Source of the DNA: a virus
Taxonomy: Duplodnaviria; Heunggongvirae; Uroviricota; Caudoviricetes
Strand: one strand, 5' to 3'
Virus record (IMG/VR): IMGVR_UViG_2636415959_000002
DNA length: 50,938 nucleotides
Of this stretch, positions 9,160-50,938 are shown piece after piece. The notes under the pieces are model-generated. The model ran no database searches. It had not been told where the DNA came from and worked only from the letters and a program-made list of their open reading frames with translations. The position numbers were made by a program, and so were the translations under genes. Position 1 is the stretch's first letter. Each line of letters starts with the position of its first letter.

Positions 9160-10551
9160 TTATGCTTCATGTTGCTTTTTGAGATCGCTTCTAGCATAGC
9201 TCCACTCAATAATGTTGTCGGGTCGTTGCTGATCGAAAAGGATACGGGATTCAATACCATTACCTAAAAAGCTGGTATTCCCATCTACGTAAGAAGCTAT
9301 CCCTTGTGAACCAACACGAAGAATATTTTCTAATGGCTGCTTTGTTCTTGCTGCATCGCTAAGGAGATATAAACCCGGGTACGTTTTGTTAGCACGGTGA
9401 AAAAAAAGTTCATTGTCAAAACACATGACGATGATTATTTGTCCCGACATGAGATCGGAGAGCATTTCAGTTGGCAGATGCAAACTCATAAATGGTCGAG
9501 ACAAAGGGTCAAAGAATGAATCATTTATATTCACAACAGGGCTTTTTATACCGAGACTATCCATCCATCCATTGAAGGCAACAAAGCCCATTTCAGAATC
9601 ACGGTACATACCTAAGAACAAACATTCATCAATAGTATCAATTGCCCAATTTTTTCCTCCGCGAATAATCTCCCACATTTTAACTAAGCGGTGGGTATAA
9701 AATTCAGACGGATGATCTATCTCATTGATTTTAACTTTAGACTGATGAAAGTTGTCAAAGCCCTCGCCAGTATTAATCGCCTCCAGAACATTCATGCCAC
9801 GAATGATTTGCCTTTTTATGCGATTAAATTGCTTAACATCATTATCAGGCATATTGTTAATGAAGTTTTCTTCAAAGTGCGGACATTCTGAGATAACAGA
9901 AAATTCAGCAGCTTCATAAAGCTCATTATTCTTTTCACCTGTTTTAACTTCCACGAGCTGGAAGCCATCCAGTAGATTAAAGGTGACTAAATCTCCCACA
10001 TGAACAAATGTGCTCATGTCAGAGACAATCGCTACGGAGTGTTTGTCCTGGTTGATAAGATCGGCTGCGACCATAGAATCAATTATGTTATCTTCTGATA
10101 GATTGTCATTGCTTGCATTAATAGGTAAACGCCGCAAACTAGAGTGTTCTTCATCAAGAATGCTCCAAATTATTGAGTCAATACAACGGCGAAGAATAAG
10201 AATTTCAAATTTTTTTAAACTTATTTCATCAATACACTTTTCTTTATTTTCTTTATCCTTGTTTCGATGGTGCTCTTTTTTTTCAGTTTCCAATCTTTTT
10301 ATATCTCTCAGCCGAATAATAATCTCAAAAGATATGATTTTTTGTGAGTCTTTCCAATTTTTGAGACAGGTTTCATACTCTGCAAGAAAATCCTCATCAT
10401 TGGAAGGTAGTTCTTGAATTGGATTCCCTCCCCTTATCATTTTGGCAAGTGCATGCATTAAAGATACATAATGAGGCGATAAAATTGTCCAAAACTTCCT
10501 AAACGGTTTGTACTTTTCAAGAAAAGTTGACTCATCAGTATAATTCATCAT
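9160..10551 (-). CDS. Uncharacterised 463-aa protein, downstream partner of the AbiH-like gene; possible PD-(D/E)xK nuclease-like core
   Basis: ORF 9160..10557; likely ATG at 10551 (MMNYTDEST) with GAGG upstream; AT-rich codon usage; segment FVHVGDLVTFNLLDGFQLVEVKTGEKN fits D-x13-E-x-K; no Walker motif or other signature recognised. Confidence 0.6.
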   Translation of the reverse strand: MMNYTDESTFLEKYKPFRKFWTILSPHYVSLMHALAKMIRGGNPIQELPSNDEDFLAEYETCLKNWKDSQKIISFEIIIRLRDIKRLETEKKEHHRNKDKENKEKCIDEISLKKFEILILRRCIDSIIWSILDEEHSSLRRLPINASNDNLSEDNIIDSMVAADLINQDKHSVAIVSDMSTFVHVGDLVTFNLLDGFQLVEVKTGEKNNELYEAAEFSVISECPHFEENFINNMPDNDVKQFNRIKRQIIRGMNVLEAINTGEGFDNFHQSKVKINEIDHPSEFYTHRLVKMWEIIRGGKNWAIDTIDECLFLGMYRDSEMGFVAFNGWMDSLGIKSPVVNINDSFFDPLSRPFMSLHLPTEMLSDLMSGQIIIVMCFDNELFFHRANKTYPGLYLLSDAARTKQPLENILRVGSQGIASYVDGNTSFLGNGIESRILFDQQRPDNIIEWSYARSDLKKQHEA

Positions 10552-10640
10552 AACCAAACCTCATTCCTCTTATCTATTTTCCTCAAGGTATAAAATACCA
10601 GCCTTTTTTACATAATTATAGTTATAATATGAAGTCTCAT

Positions 10641-11510
10641 TCAGATATCTTCATACTGTACGTAAGAAATATTTGAGCCTCTGATACCATAATCTTCTAA
10701 ACTGCCTGATTTTTTCTCACCTCTATATAAAGCAACTATCCATCGAGCATTTTCTTGGATGCTTTTATTTATTTCAGTAAAGTATTCACCGTCAACTTCG
10801 GCGAGCGAGTGGCCTAAAACGATGACCTCGTCCACATTTTTAAGCGATGAGAAAAAAACGTTTTCTTCTTTAATTATGTCTTCGCTGGGCTTGAATGTAT
10901 TACCGAAGTATTCGTTTATTCTGTCGTATGCCTCTGCTATTCTTGTATCTTGATCCGGTCCTATATATGGATTTAGTGACTTTTCCACCCTAAAACTATG
11001 ACCAAGTATGAGATCGTCATCGTAACTACAATTGCCGTGAATATGTATGATTTGCTCGTCTGGAACGGCATAGATCTGCTGCAAGGTATTTGTATAATTA
11101 AATGAAAAATAGATGCTTTCTCTTGGTATGGGCGGGATGTATTGCTTAGGATTGTAAGCATCGGCTATGTTAATCCCTTTAACCCAATCAGCGAATTGCT
11201 CCTTCAAACGAGCTGACAGCATTTGTGTGATTTTATTTACTTCATATTGGTAATCGTGATGATAAGCATCGCTCCAATCATCGGTATTGTATGAAGCCAA
11301 AAATATCTCACTGTTTTGAAGGATAAGCTCATAATCAATTTCACCTAAAGCATTTTCTAACTCATTCCACTCGTCCCCAGCAGGAATGTATTCTTCTATC
11401 GCGTCATATAGATCTTGGTCATTTTTTTCTACATACGACTTAAAGTGCTTGTATCCTGTTGGTAAGCCATGACGCATGTCAAATCCATTTCCTATTATGT
11501 AAAGCCTCAT
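10641..11510 (-). CDS. AbiH-family (abortive infection) protein
   Basis: 289 aa from internal ATG (MRLYIIGNGFDMRHGLPTGYKHF) with AAGGGA RBS; the IIGNGFD-x-HGL-x-T-Y motif is the N-terminal signature I recall for the AbiH family; AT-rich. Confidence 0.7.
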   Translation of the reverse strand: MRLYIIGNGFDMRHGLPTGYKHFKSYVEKNDQDLYDAIEEYIPAGDEWNELENALGEIDYELILQNSEIFLASYNTDDWSDAYHHDYQYEVNKITQMLSARLKEQFADWVKGINIADAYNPKQYIPPIPRESIYFSFNYTNTLQQIYAVPDEQIIHIHGNCSYDDDLILGHSFRVEKSLNPYIGPDQDTRIAEAYDRINEYFGNTFKPSEDIIKEENVFFSSLKNVDEVIVLGHSLAEVDGEYFTEINKSIQENARWIVALYRGEKKSGSLEDYGIRGSNISYVQYEDI

Positions 11511-11968
11511 TGTTTTTCCCTTAGTCGAATTGTATAAAAATACTAACATGGCCTGCTCCACGTTGACTACTATCCCCTCCTTTGAGTAATGCCTTCATCA
11601 GATGTAACAACATTTGCGAGCTTCCACAGTTCGCTCAAAGCGGACTAGAAGGTTAGCTTGCGTCGGACTTGGCGTATTTAAAGAAGTGCTGGTGGAGACT
11701 GGTTGTTGTGTTCCATTTCTACAGAACAAAATCACAGAAACTATACCCAATAGTTATATTGAATCAATGATGAGACAGCCTCATATTTATCAGGACTGGT
11801 GTACGTCCAATACAGGAGGTTGTCGTGCTGGTTCTCAAATGTGCGCTAGCTATTGCGGCTGTAATGGCAATTTATTGTCTTGCTGTTGTTCTTACGGATC
11901 GCCTTTCTGATTGATTTTATATTGGCGAGGTGACGTGAGTTAAGTAGAATTGCTGCGGGTGCTTGAGG

Positions 11969-16954: not shown

Positions 16955-17265
16955 TCCAATGACTCAAGGCTATGAACTGGTTGTGAAAGGAGTCCGTAAT
17001 TTTGAGAATAAAGTTACGGTAACTGTAGCCTTACAGGACAAAGAACGCTTTGACGGTGAAATTTTTGGCCTGGATGTCGCCATGGACCGTGTTGAAGGAG
17101 CTACGCTGGAGTTTTATGAGGCAGCAGCCAGAATGAGCGTCCGGCAAGTCTTCCTGGAAGTAGCAGAAAAATTGTCAGAAAAGTTGAGTCTTATCTGCAG
17201 CATCAGTACTCCTTTAAGATTGAAAATCCTGCCAATAAGCACGAGCGTCCTCATCATAAATATCT

Positions 17266-18293
<1,028 letters not shown>

Positions 18294-18868: not shown

Positions 18869-19213
18869 GGTAGACAATATTACAAACCATATTCACTTTA
18901 GATGCCCGTGTTGTCATGGTTCCCAGTATAGAACATCATCTTTTGATGTTTCTGACATGAATCCTTTCGGGGCAAAATGTATCTTTTGTAAATCAATGAT
19001 GATTACATTTGATAATATTTCACAATACTTAAATGCCAGCCGTCTGTCGTTGGATTTAAAAAAGTGAAAATGAAGGCTCCTTCGGGAGCTTTTTGGCTTG
19101 GTGTCTATTCGATGGATACTCACATACTACGGTAACATCATGAAAAAAATCATAGTTTTTTTAACTCTGAACCAGCAGTGGTAGTGCCAGCGATGACTGG
19201 AGTTAACACCATC

Positions 19214-20955: not shown

Positions 20956-21475
20956 ATGGAAGTCAACAAAAAGCAGCTGGCTGACATTTTCGGTGCGAGT
21001 ATCCGTACCATTCAGAACTGGCAGGAACAGGGAATGCCCGTTCTGCGAGGCGGTGGCAAGGGTAATGAGGTGCTTTATGACTCTGCCGCCGTTATAAGAT
21101 GGTATGCCGAAAGGGATGCTGAAATTGAGAACGAAAAGCTGCGCCGGGAAGTTGAAGAACTGCGGCAGGCCAGCGAGGCAGATCTCCAGCCAGGGACTAT
21201 TGAGTACGAACGCCATCGACTTACGCGTGCGTAGGCCGACGCACAGGAACTGAAGAATGCCAGAGACTCCGCTGAAGTGGTGGAAACCGCATTCTGTACT
21301 TTCGTGCTGTCGCGGATCGCAGGTGAAATTGCCAGTATTCTCGACGGGATCCCCCTGTCGGTGCAGCGGCGTTTTCCGGAACTGGAAAACCGACATGTTG
21401 ATTTCCTGAAACGGGATATCATCAAAGCCATGAACAAAGCAGCCGCGCTGGATGAACTGATACCGGGGTTGCTGA

Positions 21476-21501
<26 letters not shown>
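20956..21501 (+). pseudogene. nu1: Terminase small subunit Nu1 interrupted by an in-frame amber (TAG) codon
   Basis: ORFs 20956..21234 and 21277..21501 are in the same frame and together reconstitute a 181-codon lambda Nu1-like protein (MEVNKKQLADIFGASIRTIQNWQEQGMP ... LSEYIEQSG); single TAG at 21232-21234. Confidence 0.85.
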
Positions 21502-25182
<3,681 letters not shown>

Positions 25183-26899: not shown

Positions 26900-27925
26900 A
26901 TGTCGATGTACACAACCGCCCAGCTGCTGGCGGCAAATGAGAAGAAGTTTAAGTTTGATCCGCTGTTTCTGCGTCTCTTTTTCCGTGAGAGCTATCCCTT
27001 CACCACGGAGAAAGTCTATCTCTCACAAATTCCGGGACTGGTAAACATGGCGCTGTACGTTTCGCCGATTGTTTCCGGTGAGGTTATCCGCTCCCGTGGC
27101 GGCTCCACCTCTGAATTTACACCGGGATATGTCAAGCCGAAGCATGAGGTGAATCCGCAGATGACCCTGCGTCGCCTGCCGGATGAAGATCCGCAGAATC
27201 TGGCGGACCCGGCTTACCGCCGCCGTCGCATCATCATGCAGAACATGCGAGACGAAGAGCTGGCCATTGCTCAGGTCGAAGAGATGCAGGCAGTTTCTGC
27301 TGTGCTTAAGGGCAAATACACCATGACCGGTGAAGCCTTCGATCCGGTTGAGGTGGATATGGGCCGCAGTGCGGCGAACAACATCACACAGTCCGGTGGT
27401 ACGGAGTGGAGCAAGCGTGACAAGTCCACGTATGACCCGACCGACGATATCGAAGCCTATGCGCTGAACGCCAGCGGAGTGGTGAATATCATCGTGTTTG
27501 ATCCGAAAGGCTGGGTGCTGTTCCGTTCCTTCAAAGCCGTCAGGGAGAAGCTGGATACCCGTCGCGGCTCTAATTCCGAGCTGGAGACAGCGGTAAAAGA
27601 CCTGGGCGAAGCGGTGTCCTATAAGGGGATGTATGGCGATACGGCGATCGTCGTGTATTCCGGACAGTACGTGGAAAACGACGTCAAAAAGAACTTCCTG
27701 CCGGACAACACGATGGTGCTGGGGAACACTCAGGCACGCGGTCTGCGCACCTATGGCTGCATTCAGGATGCGGACGCACAGCGCGAAGGTATTAACGCCT
27801 CTGCCCGCTACCCGAAAAACTGGGTGACCACCGGCGATCCGGCGCGTGAGTTCACCATGATTCAGTCAGCACCGCTGATGCTGCTGGCTGATCCTGATGC
27901 GTTCGTGTCCGTACAACTGGCGTAA
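26900..27925 (+). CDS. E: Major capsid protein E
   Basis: MSMYTTAQLLAANEKKFKFDPLFLRLFF..., lambda gpE-like, 341 aa (start taken from the ORF-track frame). Confidence 0.95.
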   Translation: MSMYTTAQLLAANEKKFKFDPLFLRLFFRESYPFTTEKVYLSQIPGLVNMALYVSPIVSGEVIRSRGGSTSEFTPGYVKPKHEVNPQMTLRRLPDEDPQNLADPAYRRRRIIMQNMRDEELAIAQVEEMQAVSAVLKGKYTMTGEAFDPVEVDMGRSAANNITQSGGTEWSKRDKSTYDPTDDIEAYALNASGVVNIIVFDPKGWVLFRSFKAVREKLDTRRGSNSELETAVKDLGEAVSYKGMYGDTAIVVYSGQYVENDVKKNFLPDNTMVLGNTQARGLRTYGCIQDADAQREGINASARYPKNWVTTGDPAREFTMIQSAPLMLLADPDAFVSVQLA

Positions 27926-29716: not shown

Positions 29717-30457
29717 ATGCCTGTACCAAATCCTGTAATGCCGGTGAAAGGGGCCGGGACCACCCTGTGGGTTTATAAGGGGAGTGGTGACCCTTATGCG
29801 AATCCGCTTTCAGACGTTGACTGGTCGCGTCTGGCAAAAGTTAAAGACCTGACGCCCGGCGAACTGACCGCTGAGTCTTATGACGACAGCTATCTCGATG
29901 ATGAAGATGCAGACTGGACTGCGACCGGGCAGGGGCAGAAATCTGCCGGAGATACCAGCTTCACGCTGGCGTGGATGCCCGGAGAGCAGGGGCAGCAGGC
30001 GCTGCTGGCGTGGTTTAATGAAGGCGATACCCGTGCCTATAAAATCCGCTTCCCGAACGGCACGGTCGATGTGTTCCGTGGCTGGGTCAGCAGTATCGGT
30101 AAGGCGGTGACGGCGAAGGAAGTGATTACCCGCACGGTGAAGGTCACCAATGTGGGACGTCCGTCGATGGCAGAAGATCGCAGCACGGTGACGGCGACAA
30201 CCGGCATGACGGTGACACCCGCCAGTGCTTCCGTAGTGAAAGGGCAGAGCACCACGCTGACCGTGGCATTCCAGCCGGATGGCGCAACCGACAAGAGCTT
30301 CCGTGCGGTGTCTGCGGATAAAACAAAAGCCACCGTGTCGGTCAGTGGTATGACCATCACCGTGAAAGGTGTTGCTGCAGGCAAGGTCAACATTCCGGTC
30401 GTATCCGGTAATGGTGAGTTTGCTGCGGTTGCAGAAATCAACGTCACCGCCAGTTAA
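29717..30457 (+). CDS. V: Major tail tube protein V
   Basis: 246 aa from [22 protein letters not shown]..., lambda gpV-like with C-terminal Ig-like domain. Confidence 0.95.
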
Positions 30458-30472: not shown

Positions 30473-30895
30473 ATGTTCCTGAAAACCGAATCATTTGAAC
30501 ATAACGGTGTGACCGTCACGCTTTCTGAACTGTCAGCCCTGCAGCGTATTGAGCATCTCGCCCTGATGAAACGGCAGGCAGAACAGGCGGAGTCAGACAG
30601 CAACCGGAAGTTTACTGTGGAAGACGCCATCAGAACCGGCGCGTTTCTGGTGGCGATGTCCCTGTGGCATAACCATCCGAAGAAGACAAAGCTGCCTTCC
30701 ATGAATTAAGCCGTTAAACAGATTGAGCAGGAAGTGCTTACCACCTGGCCCACAGAGGCAATTTCTCATGCTGAAAACGTGGTGTACCGGCTGTCCGGTA
30801 TGTATGAGTTTGTGGTGAATGATGCTCCTGAACAGGCAGAGGACGCCGGGCCTGCAGAGCCTGTTTCTGCGGGAAAGTGTTCGACGGTGAGCTGA
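30473..30895 (+). pseudogene. G: Tail assembly chaperone G interrupted by an in-frame ochre (TAA) codon
   Basis: ORF stops at TAA 30707-30709 after ...KKTKLPSMN; the same frame continues AVKQIEQEVLTTWPTEAISHAENVVYRLSGMYEFVV...SAGKCSTVS to TGA at 30893-30895, restoring a 140-codon gpG; the G-T slippery heptamer G GGA AAG (~30871-30877) is intact. Confidence 0.8.
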
Positions 30896-31311
30896 GTTTT
30901 GCCCTGAAACTGGCGCGTGAGATGGGGCGACCCGACTGGCGCGCCATGCTTGCCGGGATGTCATCCACGGAGTATGCCGACTGGCACCGCTTTTACAGTA
31001 CCCATTATTTTCATGATGTTCTGCTGGATATGCACTTTTCCGGGCTGACGTACACCGTGCTCAGCCTGTTTTTCAGCGATCCGGAGATGCATCCGCTGGA
31101 TTTCAGTCTGCTGAACCGGCGCGAGGCTGACGAAGAGCCTGAAGATGATGTGCTGATGCAGAAAGCGGCAGGGCTTGCCGGAGGCGTCCGCTTTGGTCCG
31201 GACGGGAATGAAGTTATCCCCGCTTCCCCGGATGTGGCGGACATGACGGAGGATGACGTAATGCTGATGACAGTATCAGAAGGGATCGCAGGAGGAGTCC
31301 GGTATGGCTGA
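30877..31311 (+). CDS. T: Tail assembly protein T reading frame (expressed as a G-T fusion by -1 frameshift)
   Basis: -1 frame relative to G starting at the slippery site; lambda gpT-like (…FDGELSFALKLAREMGRPDWRAMLAGM...). Confidence 0.75.
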   Translation: MFDGELSFALKLAREMGRPDWRAMLAGMSSTEYADWHRFYSTHYFHDVLLDMHFSGLTYTVLSLFFSDPEMHPLDFSLLNRREADEEPEDDVLMQKAAGLAGGVRFGPDGNEVIPASPDVADMTEDDVMLMTVSEGIAGGVRYG

Positions 31312-33883
31312 ACCGGTAGGCGATCTGGTCGTTGATTTGAGTCTGGATGCGGCCAGATTTGACGAGCAGATGGCCAGAGTCAGGCGTCATTTTTCCGGTA
31401 CGGAAAGTGATGCGAAAAAAACAGCGGCAGTCGTTGAACAGTCGATGAACCGGCAGGCGCTGGCTGCACAGAAAGCGGGAATTTCCGTCGGGCAGTATAA
31501 AGCCGCCATGCGTATGCTGCCTGCGCAGTTCACTGACGTGGCCACGCAGCTTGCCGGCGGGCAAAGTCCGTGGCTGATCCTGCTGCAACAGGGGGGTCAG
31601 GTGAAGGACTCCTTCGGCGGGATGATCCCCATGTTCCGGGGGCTTGCCGGTGCGATCACCCTGCCGATGGTGGGGGCTACCTCGCTGGCGGTGGCGACCG
31701 GAGCGCTGGCGTATGCCTGGTATCAGGGCAACTCAACCCTGTCCGATTTCAACAAAACGCTGGTCCTTTCCGGCAATCAGGCGGGACTGACGGCAGATCG
31801 TATGCTGGTCCTGTCCAGAGCCGGGCAGGCGGCAGGGCTGACGTTTAACCAGACCAGCGAGTCACTCAGCGCACTGGTTAAGGCGGGGGTAAGCGGTGAG
31901 GCTCAGATTGCGTCCATCAGCCAGAGTGTGGCGCGTTTCTCCTCTGCATCCGGCGTGGAGGTGGACAAGGTCGCTGAAGCCTTCGGGAAGCTGACCACAG
32001 ACCCGACGTCGGGGCTGACGGCGATGGCACGCCAGTTCCATAACGTGACGGCGGAGCAGATTGCGTATGTTGCTCAGTTGCAGCGTTCCGGCGATGAAGC
32101 CGGGGCATTGCAGGCGGCGAACGAGGCCGCAACGAAAGGGTTTGATGACCAGACCCGCCGCCTGAAAGAGAACATGGGCACGCTGGAGACCTGGGCAGAC
32201 AGGACAGCACGGGCATTCAAATCCATGTGGGATTCGGTGCTGGATATTGGTCGCCCGGACACTGCCCAGGGAATGCTGGAGAAAGCAGAAAAGGCTTTTG
32301 ATGAGGCGGACAAAAAATGGCAGTGGTATCAGAGCCGGAGCCACCGGCGCGGTAAAACCTCAGCATTTCTTGCCAATCTCCGGGGAGCATGGGAGGACAG
32401 AGCGAATGCGCAACTTGGGCTTTCAGCCGCCACGTTGCAGGCCGATCTTGAAAAGGCCAGAGAGATGGCAGCAAAGGACTGGGCCGAGTCTGAGGCATCA
32501 CGGCTGAAATATACCGAAGAGGCGCAGAAGGCTTACGAACGCCTGCAGACGCCGCTGGAGAAATATACCGCCCGTCAGGAAGAACTGAACAAGGCACTGA
32601 AGGACGGGAAAATTCTGCAGGCAGATTACAACACGCTGATGGCGGCGGCGAAAAAGGACTATGAAGCGACGCTGAAAAAGCCGAAACAGTCCGGCGTGAA
32701 GGTGTCTGCGGGCGATCGTCAGGAAGACAGTGCTCATGCTGCCCTGCTGACGCTTCAGGCAGAACTCCGGACGCTGGAGAAGCATGCCGGAGCAAATGAG
32801 AAAATCAGCCAGCAGCGCCGGGATTTGTGGAAGGCGGAGAGTCAGTTCGCGGTACTGGAGGAGGCGGCGCAACGTCGCCAGCTGTCTGCACAGGAGAAAT
32901 CCCTGCTGGCGCATAAAGATGAGACGCTGGAGTACAAACGCCAGCTGGCTGCACTTGGCGACAAGGTTACGTATCAGGAGCGCCTGAACGCGCTGGCGCA
33001 GCAGGCGGATAAATTCGCACAGCAGCAACGGGCAAAACGGGCCGCTATTGATGCGAAAAGCCGGGGGCTGACTGACCGGCAGGCAGAACGGGAAGCCACG
33101 GAACAGCGCCTGAAGGAACAGTATGGCGATAATCCTCTGGCGCTGAATAACGTCATGTCAGAGCAGAAAAAGACCTGGGCGGCTGAAGACCTGCTTCGCG
33201 GGAACTGGATGGCAGGCCTCAGGTCCGGCTGGAGCGAGTGGAAAGAGAGTGCCACGGACAGTATGTCGCAGGTTAAAAGTGCAGCCACGCAGACCTTTGA
33301 TGGTATTGCGCAGAATATGGCGGCGATGCTGACCGGCAGTGAACAGAACTGGCGCAGCTTCACCCGCTCCGTGCTGTCCATGATGACAGAAATTCTGCTT
33401 AAGCAGGCAATGGTGGGGATTGTCGGGAGTATCGGCAGCGCCATTGGCGGGGCTGTTGGTGGCGGCGCATCCGCGTCAGGCGGTACAGCCATTCAGGCCG
33501 CTGCGGCGAAATTCCATTTTGCGACCGGGGGATTTACGGGAACCGGCGGCAAATATGAGCCAGCGGGGATTGTTCACCGTGGTGAATTTGTCTTCACGAA
33601 GGAGGCAACCAGCCGGATTGGTGTCGGCAACCTGTACCGCCTGATGCGGGGCTATGCGGAAGGTGGTTATGTGGGCGGTGCCGGAAGTCCGGCGCAGATG
33701 CGGCGGGCTGAAGGCATTAATTTTAATCAGAACAATCACGTGGTGATTCAGAACGACGGTACGAATGGTCTGCCAGGTCCACAGATGATGAAGGCGGTGT
33801 ATGACATGGCCCGCAAGGGTGCCCGTGATGAAATCCAGGCACAGATGCGCGATGGTGGTCTGTTCTCCGGAGGTGGACGATGA
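31304..33883 (+). CDS. H: Tail tape-measure protein H
   Basis: 859 aa, lambda gpH-like; coiled-coil-rich centre and Gly-rich C-terminus. Confidence 0.95.
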   Translation: MAEPVGDLVVDLSLDAARFDEQMARVRRHFSGTESDAKKTAAVVEQSMNRQALAAQKAGISVGQYKAAMRMLPAQFTDVATQLAGGQSPWLILLQQGGQVKDSFGGMIPMFRGLAGAITLPMVGATSLAVATGALAYAWYQGNSTLSDFNKTLVLSGNQAGLTADRMLVLSRAGQAAGLTFNQTSESLSALVKAGVSGEAQIASISQSVARFSSASGVEVDKVAEAFGKLTTDPTSGLTAMARQFHNVTAEQIAYVAQLQRSGDEAGALQAANEAATKGFDDQTRRLKENMGTLETWADRTARAFKSMWDSVLDIGRPDTAQGMLEKAEKAFDEADKKWQWYQSRSHRRGKTSAFLANLRGAWEDRANAQLGLSAATLQADLEKAREMAAKDWAESEASRLKYTEEAQKAYERLQTPLEKYTARQEELNKALKDGKILQADYNTLMAAAKKDYEATLKKPKQSGVKVSAGDRQEDSAHAALLTLQAELRTLEKHAGANEKISQQRRDLWKAESQFAVLEEAAQRRQLSAQEKSLLAHKDETLEYKRQLAALGDKVTYQERLNALAQQADKFAQQQRAKRAAIDAKSRGLTDRQAEREATEQRLKEQYGDNPLALNNVMSEQKKTWAAEDLLRGNWMAGLRSGWSEWKESATDSMSQVKSAATQTFDGIAQNMAAMLTGSEQNWRSFTRSVLSMMTEILLKQAMVGIVGSIGSAIGGAVGGGASASGGTAIQAAAAKFHFATGGFTGTGGKYEPAGIVHRGEFVFTKEATSRIGVGNLYRLMRGYAEGGYVGGAGSPAQMRRAEGINFNQNNHVVIQNDGTNGLPGPQMMKAVYDMARKGARDEIQAQMRDGGLFSGGGR

Positions 33884-43817: not shown

Positions 43818-44334
43818 TGGCATTCAGAATGAGTGAACAACCACGGACCATAAAAATTTATAATCTGCTGGCCGGAACTAATGAATTTATTGGTGAAGGT
43901 GATGCATATATTCCGCCTCATACAGGTCTGCCAGCAAACAGTACCGATATTGCACCGCCAGATATTCCGGCTGGCTTCGTGGCTGTTTTCAACAGTGATG
44001 AGTCATCGTGGCATCTCGTTGAAGATCATCGGGGTAAAATGGTTTATGACGTGGCTTCCGGCGACGCGTTATTTATTTCTGAACTCGGTCCGTTACCGGA
44101 AAATGTTACCTGGTTATCGCCGGAAGGGGAGTTTCAGAAGTGGAACGGTACAGTCTGGGTGAAGGATACGGAAGCAGAAAAACTGTTCCGGATCCGGGAG
44201 GCGGAAGAAACAAAAAACAGCCTGATGCAGGTAGCCAGTGAGCATATAGCGGTAAGCGTCGTCTGAGTACCGTCTGGTCCCGAATCCAGGATCCTGTAAC
44301 TTAAGCACCCACTTATTTTGCAGGTGGACACCTC

Positions 44335-44718
44335 ATGCGCGCTAAAGAAAGACTTCCCCGGAAACACTATTCCCCTGAATTCAAAATGGAACTGGTCAGG
44401 CTGGCTCTTGAAGAAGAAGGCAGTATTGCCGCACTGGCCCGGAAACATGACGTCAATGATAACCTGCTCTTTAAATGGATAAGGCTCTGGCAGCGTGAAG
44501 GGCGGGTCTGTCGGCCCCGAAAAAACTCATCGTCGCTTCCTGCCCTGATACCCGTGCAGCTTCAGGCGGGCTCTTCTCTCCCAACCTTCGAACTACCATC
44601 CTGCTCTCCTCCCGCTACCTGCCACATAAAATGTCGGGGAGGAGAAATAACACTGACTCATCCCTCTGCTGAACTCATGAGCACTGTCCTGCGCGAACTG
44701 ATGCGGGGGCCGGTATGA
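44335..44718 (+). CDS. IS66 accessory protein (orf1/TnpA-like, HTH)
   Basis: 127 aa, MRAKERLPRKHYSPEFKMELVRLALEEEGSIAALARKHDVNDNLLFKWI... Confidence 0.8.
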   Translation: MRAKERLPRKHYSPEFKMELVRLALEEEGSIAALARKHDVNDNLLFKWIRLWQREGRVCRPRKNSSSLPALIPVQLQAGSSLPTFELPSCSPPATCHIKCRGGEITLTHPSAELMSTVLRELMRGPV

Positions 44719-45062
44719 TAAATCTTCCCGCAGGCACAAAAATCTGGCTGGTTGCCGGTATCACCGATATGCGCAACGGCTTCAATGGCCTCGCCGCAAA
44801 GGTGCAGACCGCGCTGAAAGATGACCCGATGTCCGGCCACGTCTTCATCTTCCGGGGACGCAGCGGCAGTCAGGTAAAACTGCTCTGGTCCACCGGCGAT
44901 GGTCTGTGCCTGCTGACAAAGCGACTGGAACGTGGTCGCTTCGCCTGGCCCTCAGCCCGCGATGGCAAAGTGTTCCTGACGCCGGCGCAACTGGCGATGC
45001 TGATGGAAGGTATCGACTGGCGACAGCCAAAGCGGTTACTGACATCCCTGACCATGTTGTAG
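44715..45062 (+). CDS. IS66 Orf2 (TnpB-like) protein
   Basis: 115 aa, MINLPAGTKIWLVAGITDMRNGFNGLAAKVQTALKDDPMSGHVFIFRGRSG..., hallmark IS66 Orf2 sequence. Confidence 0.85.
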   Translation: MINLPAGTKIWLVAGITDMRNGFNGLAAKVQTALKDDPMSGHVFIFRGRSGSQVKLLWSTGDGLCLLTKRLERGRFAWPSARDGKVFLTPAQLAMLMEGIDWRQPKRLLTSLTML

Positions 45063-45111
45063 CGCTCTTTATCCTGGTTGTCGCAGAATAAGCCTGGTAA
45101 AATACAGGCTT

Positions 45112-46647
45112 ATGAACGATACCTCTTCTGACGACATCCTTCTGCTGAAACAGCGCCTGGCCGAACAGGAAGCGTTGATCCACGCCCTGCAGGAAAAGCT
45201 GAGCAACCGGGAACGCGAAATAGACCATCTGCAGGCGCAACTGGATAAGCTGCGCCGGATGAACTTCGGCAGTCGTTCCGAAAAGGTATCCCGCCGTATC
45301 GCGCAAATGGAAGCTGACCTGAACCTGCTGCAGCAGGAAAGCGATACGCTGACCGGCCGGGTGGATGACCCGGCAGTGCAGCGCCCGCTGCGTCAGACCC
45401 GCACCCGCAAACCGTTCCCTGAGTCACTCCCACGGGATGAGAAGCGGCTGCTGCCGACTGAGCCGTGTTGCCCGGAGTGCGGTGGTTCGCTGAGTTACCT
45501 GGGTGAGGATGCCGCCGAACAGCTGGAGCTGATGCGCAGCGCCTTCCGGGTTATCCGGACAGTCCGTGAAAAGCATGCCTGCCGTCGGTGCGATCGCATC
45601 GTTCAGGCCCCGGCTCCTTCGCGCCCCATCGAACGGGGGATCGCCGGACCGGGGCTGCTGGCCCGAGTGCTGACCTCAAAGTATGCAGAGCACACACCGC
45701 TGTATCGCCAGTCGGAGATCTATGCCCGCCAGGGTGTAGTGTTGAGTCGTTCTGTACTGTCGGGCTGGGTGGATGCGTGTTGTCGTCTGCTGGCACCGCT
45801 GGATGAAGCCCTTCAGCACTATGTCCTGACCGACGGCAAACTCCATGCTGACGATACGCCTGTCCCGGTGCTGTTGCCGGGCAATAAGAAGACGAAGACC
45901 GGGCGCTTATGGACGTACGTTCGAGACGACCGCAACGCCGGATCAGCGCTGGCCCCCGCAGTGTGGTTCGCTTACAGCCCGGACAGAAAAGGTATCCACC
46001 CTCAGACCCATCTTGCAGGCTTCAGTGGCGTACTGCAGGCTGATGCCTACGCCGGGTTCAACGAGCTCTACCGCGACGGCCATATAAAGGAAGCCGCGTG
46101 CTGGGCCCATGCCCGCCGAAAAATCCACGATGTTCACGTCCGTACCCCGTCAGTCCTGACGGAGGAGGCGCTGAAACGGATCGGCGAGCTGTATGCCATC
46201 GAGTCGGAGATCAGAGGTAAAAGAGCAGAGGAACGGCAGGCAGTCCGGCACCAAAAAGTGCTGCCGCTGCTGGCGTCACTGGAGGGGTGGCTGCGGGAGA
46301 AACAGAAAACCCTCTCAAGGCACTCAGAACTGGCGAAGGCGTTCGGGTATGCGCTGAACCAGTGGCCGGCGCTGATCCGCTATGCAGAAGATGGCTGGGT
46401 GGAGGTGGATAATAACATTGCCGAAAACGCCCTACGACGGGTCAGTCTGGGGAGAAAAAACTGGCTGTTCTTCGGCTCGGATCATGGTGGTGAGCGCGGT
46501 GCGTCACTGTACAGTCTTATCGGGACGTGCAAATTAAACGGCGTGGATCCGGAACGCTATCTGCATTATGTACTTGATGTCATCGCCGACTGGCCTGTGA
46601 ACCGGGTGGGTGCTCTGCTCCCGTGGCGGGTTACTCTGCCTGCCTGA
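45112..46647 (+). CDS. IS66-family transposase (DDE)
   Basis: 511 aa with N-terminal leucine zipper, CxxC...CxxC zinc ribbon (CPECGG...CRRCD) and DDE core. Confidence 0.9.
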
Positions 46648-46934
46648 CCAGCTTCACTTCGTCAATACGGTTCTCACTGCACGCTTACATATAGCGCCAC
46701 TTCAGGATGCTGTAGATCTGGAAATCGCAACGGAGGAAGAAACCTCATTGCTGGAAGCCTGGAAAAAGTATCGGGTGTTGCTGAACCGTGTTGATACATC
46801 AACTGCACAGGATATTGAATGGCCAGCACTGCCGTAGGGTAAAACATATAAATTCTATAATTAGATGTATCTTTCCATTTACGGCAAGGAAGGGGGCTTG
46901 GAAGACGTAAAGCATCTCACACCGAGATTATTTT

Positions 46935-50180: not shown

Positions 50181-50240
50181 ATTCAGGTGATGCTGCCAAC
50201 TTACTGATTTAGTGTATGATGGTGTTTTTGAGGTGCTCCA

Positions 50241-50516
50241 GTGGCTTCTGTTTCTATCAGCTGTCCCTCCTGTTCAGCTACTGACGGGGTGGTGCGTAAC
50301 GGCAAAAGCACCGCCGGACATCAGCGCTATCTCTGCTCTCACTGCCGTAAAACATGGCAACTGCAGTTCACTTACACCGCTTCTCAACCCGGTACGCACC
50401 AGAAAATCATTGATATGGCCATGAATGGCGTTGGATGCCGGGCAACTGCCCGCATTATGGGCGTTGGCCTCAACACGATTTTACGTCACTTAAAAAACTC
50501 AGGCCGCAGTCGGTAA
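50241..50516 (+). CDS. insA: IS1 InsA
   Basis: 91 aa [43 protein letters not shown]... Confidence 0.9.
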
Positions 50517-50938
50517 CCTCGCGCATACAGCCGGGCAGTGACGTCATCGTCTGCGCGGAAATGGACGAACAGTGGGGCTATGTCGGGGCTAAATCGCGCC
50601 AGCGCTGGCTGTTTTACGCGTATGACAGGCTCCGGAAGACGGTTGTTGCGCACGTATTCGGTGAACGCACGATGGCGACGCTGGGGCGTCTTATGAGCCT
50701 GCTGTCACCCTTTGACGTGGTGATATGGATGACGGATGGCTGGCCGCTGTATGAATCCCGCCTGAAGGGAAAGCTGCACGTAATCAGCAAGCGATATACG
50801 CAGCGAATTGAGCGGCATAACCTGAATCTGAGGCAGCACCTGGCACGGCTGGGACGGAAGTCGCTGTCGTTCTCAAAATCGGTGGAGCTGCATGACAAAG
50901 TCATCGGGCATTATCTGAACATAAAACACTATCAATAA
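50435..50938 (+). CDS. insB: IS1 InsB reading frame (expressed as InsAB' by -1 frameshift), complete to its stop
   Basis: ORF in the -1 frame relative to insA, containing the IS1 transposase catalytic region; ends ...IKHYQ* at 50938. Confidence 0.85.

Follow-up and report, generated by a model that had tools for sequence, protein, structure and literature searches.

The tail assembly chaperone gene G of a lambdoid prophage in E. coli G3/10 occupies 30473-30895 and is interrupted by a premature ochre codon, TAA at 30707-30709, at the Glu79 codon that reads GAA in phages lambda and 434. We hold with high confidence that this codon is a genuine inherited loss-of-function substitution (G>T, Glu79>ochre) and that it most likely arose as a neutral secondary hit in a prophage already unable to package DNA. 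The stretch analysed, hereafter the window, is 50,938 nucleotides long and represents the Qin-locus prophage on JPKI01000002.1 of assembly GCA_000768425.1, to which an exact match of the 78-aa G product assigned it. G3/10 (DSM 16443), a 1956 isolate whose genome was read by the Roche 454 method, belongs to the six strains that make up the probiotic Symbioflor 2 (PMC4358396). A literature search for prophage work or induction in G3/10 or Symbioflor 2 returned nothing relevant.

Near-identical annotated genomes supply, by transfer, the flanks and gene names that place the prophage at the Qin locus, with rspB on one side and a truncated ydfJ on the other. The transferred names are of Qin type: int, xis, exo, dicB, ydfU, ydfT, essD, rrrQ, rzpQ and cspB/F/I, together with ydfO, nohA, tfaQ, pinQ, ydfK and the truncated ydfJ. 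The early and lysis arm (20-20291), annotated by transfer from FDAARGOS_1058, holds int, xis, exo, dicB, cI-like and cro-like regulators, replication genes and an AbiH cassette, as well as ydfU, the Q-like ydfT, essD, rrrQ, rzpQ, the csp genes and ydfO. Its frames are largely intact, and all of the early, regulatory and lysis genes put through the frame check are open. FDAARGOS_1058 (Braunschweig) is 99.4% identical to the window over this arm and differs in its head-tail module. Gene order and Pfam families identify the remainder of a lambda-type morphogenesis operon at 21476-43817 on the plus strand, which besides Nu1 and G-T comprises A, W, B, C, D, E, FI, FII, Z, U, V, H, M, L, K, I, J, lom and stf. 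Of its 22 frames checked, 20 are uninterrupted, and nohA/Nu1 and G contain one internal stop each.

The prophage shares with the Qin cryptic prophage of E. coli K-12 its locus and the genes ydfJ, pinQ, tfaQ, nohA, rrrQ, rzpQ, ydfT, ydfU, dicB and csp. Unlike K-12 Qin, the prophage of G3/10 has kept almost its entire length (~48 kb), and its int, xis, immunity, replication and lysis genes are open; it is at an early stage of decay, by the routes of point mutation, IS insertion and deletion seen in defective lambdoid prophages generally. Three further features of the window were recorded in passing. Between the replication and antitermination modules, on the minus strand at 9160-11561, a hypothetical protein of 463-465 aa is encoded beside an AbiH-family abortive-infection protein, a two-gene cassette that is probably a prophage-borne defence island. 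The ydfR gene (DUF1327, 16959-17348) is frameshifted by an indel near 17178 and gives a 129-aa product overlapping rrrQ, where other strains have a 103-aa form; the same 129-aa form is called in four close relatives (L018-L020 and L022), so the frameshift appears real and lineage-wide. At the right end of the window, an IS1 copy (50186-50938) starts directly after ydfJ.

Within the operon, G lies in its lambda context, preceded by the major tail gene V (29717-30457) and followed, after T, by the tape-measure gene H (31304-33883). The G reading frame begins at ATG 30473 and reaches the TAA after 78 codons (30473-30709, plus strand), giving a 78-aa product that ends in ...HNHPKKTKLPSMN. Beyond the stop the frame stays open for 61 sense codons (30710-30892) as far as the normal TGA at 30893-30895, and this untranslated remainder (30710-30895, plus strand) is identical to the corresponding part of phage 434. 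The slippery heptamer for the -1 G-T frameshift, GGGAAAG at 30871-30877 on the plus strand, is intact and in the phase G GGA AAG, at nucleotide 399 of G as in lambda; it is the heptamer listed for lambda G/GT (PMC3296357). Downstream, the T frame (30877-31311, plus strand), which lies at -1 relative to G and encodes the C-terminal part of gpGT, is free of internal stops up to 31311, where its end overlaps the start of H as it does in lambda. When the -1 shift is modelled, a GT frame of 279 codons results in which the TAA is the sole interruption. Direct reading of the window thus bears out the preliminary description, which had reported an in-frame TAA after ...PSMN, 61 further codons to the expected stop and a preserved heptamer.

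Comparison with the two reference phages isolates the lesion to one base. The phage 434 G/GT region (839 nt) is 99.5% identical to the window, and within G the two differ only by the derived G>T at 30707 that turns GAA into TAA. The lambda gene is more distant, at ~97% nucleotide identity with 13 differences in 423 nt, and its codon 79 likewise specifies Glu. The Pfam family of the lambda tail assembly chaperone protein G (PF06894) covers both sides of the stop: the upstream half matches profile positions 1-78 (E 3.8e-37) and the downstream half positions 80-125 (E 1.5e-15). Because the halves occupy adjoining positions, they represent one domain severed by one codon rather than two genes or chance reading frames. 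With codon 79 repaired, G matches the whole profile, 1-125, with 199 bits (E 2.1e-59), and the T frame matches PF06223 (Phage_tail_T) with 54 bits (E 2e-14); both scores exceed the curated cut-offs. A PDB sequence search with the repaired protein found no relative on which the lost part could be placed. Like lambda G/G-T, the locus in the window sits between V and H, carries the slippery heptamer and has a T frame ending over the H start; unlike lambda, its G frame is broken at codon 79 between start and slip site, and neither product can be completed. G is here a member of the lambda-type G/GT family by descent, but a pseudogene.

The position of the stop defines what the gene could still produce. 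The TAA sits 164 nt 5' of GGGAAAG, and it therefore cuts short gpG and gpGT alike, as the preliminary description had concluded. In lambda, gpGT arises only from ribosomes that translate G and then shift at GGGAAAG, which yields gpG and gpGT at roughly 96:4 (PMC3296357); a statement in that source citing Levin et al. 1993 has both proteins required for normal phage production. In the window, ribosomes starting at 30473 run into the TAA at codon 79 and do not reach the heptamer. By analogy with lambda, this would leave a 78-residue N-terminal fragment as the only product, with full-length gpG (140 aa) and gpGT (279 aa) absent. The tape-measure protein gpH would then be unchaperoned and tail tubes would fail to assemble. 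Since both proteins are needed in lambda and neither can be completed here, we infer that the prophage would make no tails. Little polarity on H-J is expected from the stop, given that a separate ribosome-binding site for H is annotated in phage 434 and that late transcription is antiterminated.

Lambda nonsense (sus) mutants in tail gene G form heads and lack tails. The window resembles them in carrying a nonsense codon in G; it differs in that the codon is a natural ochre, fixed in a chromosomal prophage lineage and accompanied by an amber codon in Nu1 and an IS insertion. This company alters the expected phenotype. Tail-less heads had been anticipated in induced lysates, and we correct this to empty proheads and no tails, as the Nu1 amber should already prevent packaging.

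The stop is not peculiar to the G3/10 reference. The run SRR12376429 belongs to a set of six E. coli isolates taken from probiotic products (BioProject PRJNA650131, PMC8614787). Assembled de novo, it agrees with the window at every base over 20,237 nt, both stops included, and it is very probably a later re-sequencing of G3/10. The TAA is present in SRR15843227, which is identical to the window over ~10.56 kb, and in GCA_019937775.1, a strain distinct from G3/10, as is shown by the ancestral bases that it retains at 26947 and 27516. The known carriers of the G ochre thus number three to four assemblies. That the TAA is a sequencing or assembly error and the true base G, a possibility raised in the preliminary description and lent some colour by the 2014-15 Roche 454 origin of the reference (PMC4358396) and by a nearby G3/10-only single-base deletion in a T run at 19155 that resembles a typical 454 homopolymer error, is effectively refuted by the sequence data: the lesion is a substitution rather than a homopolymer indel, and the same T recurs in the assemblies of two later runs and in that of another strain. 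The deletion at 19155, which lies inside ynfN, is found in the G3/10 reference only and not in L018-L022, and may itself be a 454 homopolymer error.

The allele is rare. A 71-nt probe centred on the codon covered 3,539 places in 5,426 complete E. coli genomes, and the T allele was present at not one of them. An exact-pattern scan for the TAA allele also drew a blank in a collection holding one representative genome per species, a scope that makes that scan uninformative. The C and U proteins led to 14 unrelated loci in which both genes are complete, and in every one of these G has 140 aa and Nu1 181 aa. As lineage markers for a census of the lesions, C and U were considered and rejected; their alleles are common or not lineage-specific at the DNA level, in loci 145-262 substitutions from the window, which serve as intact comparators only. 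Seven short contigs matching the 78-aa product were likewise rejected as extra carriers, for these contigs run out just past codon 78, where their last one or two letters are the wild-type G or GA. More generally, an exact-sequence protein look-up also picks up incomplete products wherever a contig happens to break off at the queried stop (L010-L016, L024); such contigs have wild-type bases and mimic nonsense carriers, which calls for caution in any census of this type.

These counts bear on the notion that G homologues naturally end at this position and are followed by a separate downstream gene. The gene callers of the source record do give two products, of 78 aa and of 53 aa (from GTG 30734), yet a natural split has next to no probability against the absence of the stop from the complete genomes, the 140-aa G of every unrelated whole locus, the continuity of a single Pfam domain across the stop, Glu79 in lambda, in 434 and in the nearest relatives (L022 and L026), and an AGGA merely 1 nt upstream of the GTG. 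Reinitiation at this GTG was set aside on the same poor Shine-Dalgarno spacing, its product being one that would be without the N-terminal 87 residues.

A second nonsense codon interrupts the operon upstream of G. The nohA/Nu1 terminase small subunit gene (20956-21501, plus strand) contains an amber TAG at 21232-21234 in place of a CAG (Q93), detected by the frame check and by PF07471, which the two halves of the gene match at profile positions 1-92 and 94-164. The fragment gives weak HTH/MerR-type matches over residues 6-53, below the Pfam cut-offs. It would retain the N-terminal DNA-binding part and lose profile 94-164, and packaging should fail as a result. A probe equivalent to that used for G found the amber allele at none of 5,682 places in complete E. 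coli genomes. The identical TAG allele and context do occur in GCA_005385985.1, GCA_013850925.1, GCA_005384525.1 and two metagenome contigs. Counting only loci in which the TAG itself was seen, and not the '315 blocks' returned by a look-up with the 92-aa Nu1 fragment, at least five assemblies besides G3/10 carry it (L018, L019, L020, L022, which is GCA_005384525.1, and L023). In L023 the carrier is a prophage remnant beside the bio operon and uvrB, in which the first 507 nt of nohA equal the window before the sequences diverge. This distribution suggests that the Nu1 amber is an old allele or one that has moved between prophages through recombination; it is more widespread than the G ochre and probably older.

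A third lesion lies farther downstream. An IS66-family element (44252-46687) interrupts the tail-fibre assembly gene tfaQ (start 43817): collinearity with a relative (L002) is lost at 44251 and regained at 46688, and the intervening reading frames encode HTH_Tnp_1, TnpB_IS66 and a 511-aa transposase. The insertion is absent from L018-L020. The preliminary description had taken the G stop for the second single-codon nonsense lesion in an otherwise intact morphogenesis operon. The Nu1 Q93 amber and the 20 other open frames agree with that account; the IS66-family element in tfaQ adds a lesion that it had left out. With the Nu1 amber, the G ochre and the tfaQ insertion, the prophage bears lesions in virion-essential genes, as expected of a defective prophage.

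The nearest relatives indicate the order in which these lesions may have accumulated. Sister prophages had been suggested as a check on the stop, and the two closest, GCA_005384525.1 (L022) and SRR31115341 (L026), both carry GAA at codon 79. L022 has the Nu1 amber and an intact 140-aa G, and over 19.1 kb it is separated from the window by four substitutions (19373, 26947, 27516 and 30707) and one single-base indel in the T run at 19155. L026, whose G is also intact, shares the lineage-specific L protein (A19G, F66L). Three further assemblies (L018-L020) carry the Nu1 amber and show 0-1 substitutions plus the same single-base indel relative to the window over 10.5-11.7 kb. In these, a 20.9-kb deletion has removed the head and tail genes and joins window position 22642 (in A) to 43592 (in stf), fusing a truncated terminase gene A with the end of stf; the outcome presumably resembles the loss of the late operon in the K-12 Qin remnant.

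The most parsimonious order from these sequences has the Nu1 amber arise first, followed by independent secondary lesions in different descendants. That the amber came first and the G ochre second rests on L022 and on parsimony, and prophage recombination could blur it. Once the amber was present, DNA packaging should have been abolished and with it selection for virion production. Later descendants would then have gained separate lesions: the G ochre, the IS66-family insertion in tfaQ or the 20.9-kb deletion of the head-tail operon. On the branch leading to G3/10, the G ochre would have been followed by E A206V and one synonymous change, with the IS insertion falling somewhere along the same history. 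The G lesion is real, then, but the weight it had been given shifts: because the Nu1 amber probably predates it and is common to many assemblies, the ochre reads as a secondary hit in an already dead prophage. Private lesions also occur in other Qin-locus prophages, with an internal stop in gene I of strain C 236-04A (L006) and a frameshifted terminase in FDAARGOS_1058 (L017).

Since everything downstream of the stop is intact, from the rest of G through the slip site and T to H...J, one could suppose that a suppressor tRNA or programmed readthrough still supplies functional gpG and gpGT and keeps the prophage viable, and an ochre suppressor would read the Nu1 amber too. We consider this very improbable. 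The 50.9-kb window was searched for a suppressor tRNA and contains no tRNA genes at all. The sequence from G to J can still be intact because the mutation is young, as the four substitutions separating the window from L022 in 19.1 kb attest. The stop is not conserved among functional homologues and is limited to one small sub-lineage, and decay is what the IS insertion suggests, as do the deletions of 20.9 kb in sister lineages. TAA followed by G is an efficient terminator context in E. coli, and ochre suppressors are costly, TAA being the commonest stop codon.

How selection has acted on the operon can be gauged from its substitutions. Five Qin-type prophages with 99.4% identity differ from the window at 130 positions, among which 93 changes are synonymous and 35 missense. 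Most of the differences sit in three tracts, at ~25.1-26.3, 28.2-29.6 and 31.2-32.1 kb. The clustered differences, which mostly fall in these tracts, comprise 86 synonymous to 32 missense changes, a synonymous-dominated pattern that marks the tracts as mosaic segments imported by recombination from functional phages. The C, FI, FII and Z protein alleles of the window are those common in other lambdoid prophages. Isolated lineage-specific changes have a different composition, with five missense (L A19G, L F66L, J T768K, stf G873V and E A206V), one nonsense (G E79*) and one synonymous; the two L changes and J T768K are common to L026 and GCA_019937775.1 (L027). Between H and stf, a span of 12 kb, the window differs from all five close relatives at four positions (34264, 34406, 38558 and 43084), all of them missense. 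The neutral spectrum computed for the operon is 72% missense, 24% synonymous and 3.4% nonsense. The isolated changes come close to this spectrum, which fits relaxed selection after disablement.

Two nonsense changes among ~7-12 isolated lineage-specific events form a mild excess (P ~0.02-0.06, in a post hoc test on a tiny sample). This excess would be expected if inactivation had itself been selected, whether because it domesticated a dangerous prophage or because the 78-aa product gained a use, for example by interfering with the tail assembly of superinfecting lambdoid phages. The wide occurrence of the Nu1 amber, including its presence in the remnant at another chromosomal site (L023), points the same way. 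The lysis genes, however, are intact, so that loss of G or Nu1 spares no induced cell and a cell-level benefit is not obvious; late genes are silent in a lysogen; and the G ochre has remained limited to a handful of assemblies. We judge selection for inactivation or for a new function to be improbable. An elaboration of it strikes us as more improbable again: the Nu1 amber may spread between prophages by recombination, given its identical flanks in a full-length prophage, in the 20.9-kb deletion derivatives and in the bio/uvrB remnant, while the 78-residue fragment acts as a dominant-negative poison of tail assembly and hence as an anti-phage decoy. A superinfecting lambdoid phage would trans-activate the late operon, and the N-terminal half of the chaperone would then poison its tail assembly. 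Of the readings considered, a neutral secondary hit remains the most likely account of the G mutation on the sequence evidence.

Taken as such a hit, the ochre leaves the largest lambdoid prophage of G3/10 with three independent blocks to virion formation, in packaging, tail assembly and tail-fibre assembly. In a strain marketed as a probiotic (Symbioflor 2), the three blocks are mildly reassuring with regard to phage-mediated gene transfer. The G lesion itself is an ordinary pseudogenising step; the kind of mutation and its consequences are textbook, and it has little importance beyond strain bookkeeping. Together with its nested relatives, the prophage forms a natural time series of decay following the first knockout, with the amber alone, the amber with the ochre, both stops with the IS, and the amber with the 20.9-kb deletion, which illustrates an already well-described decay process rather than a new one.
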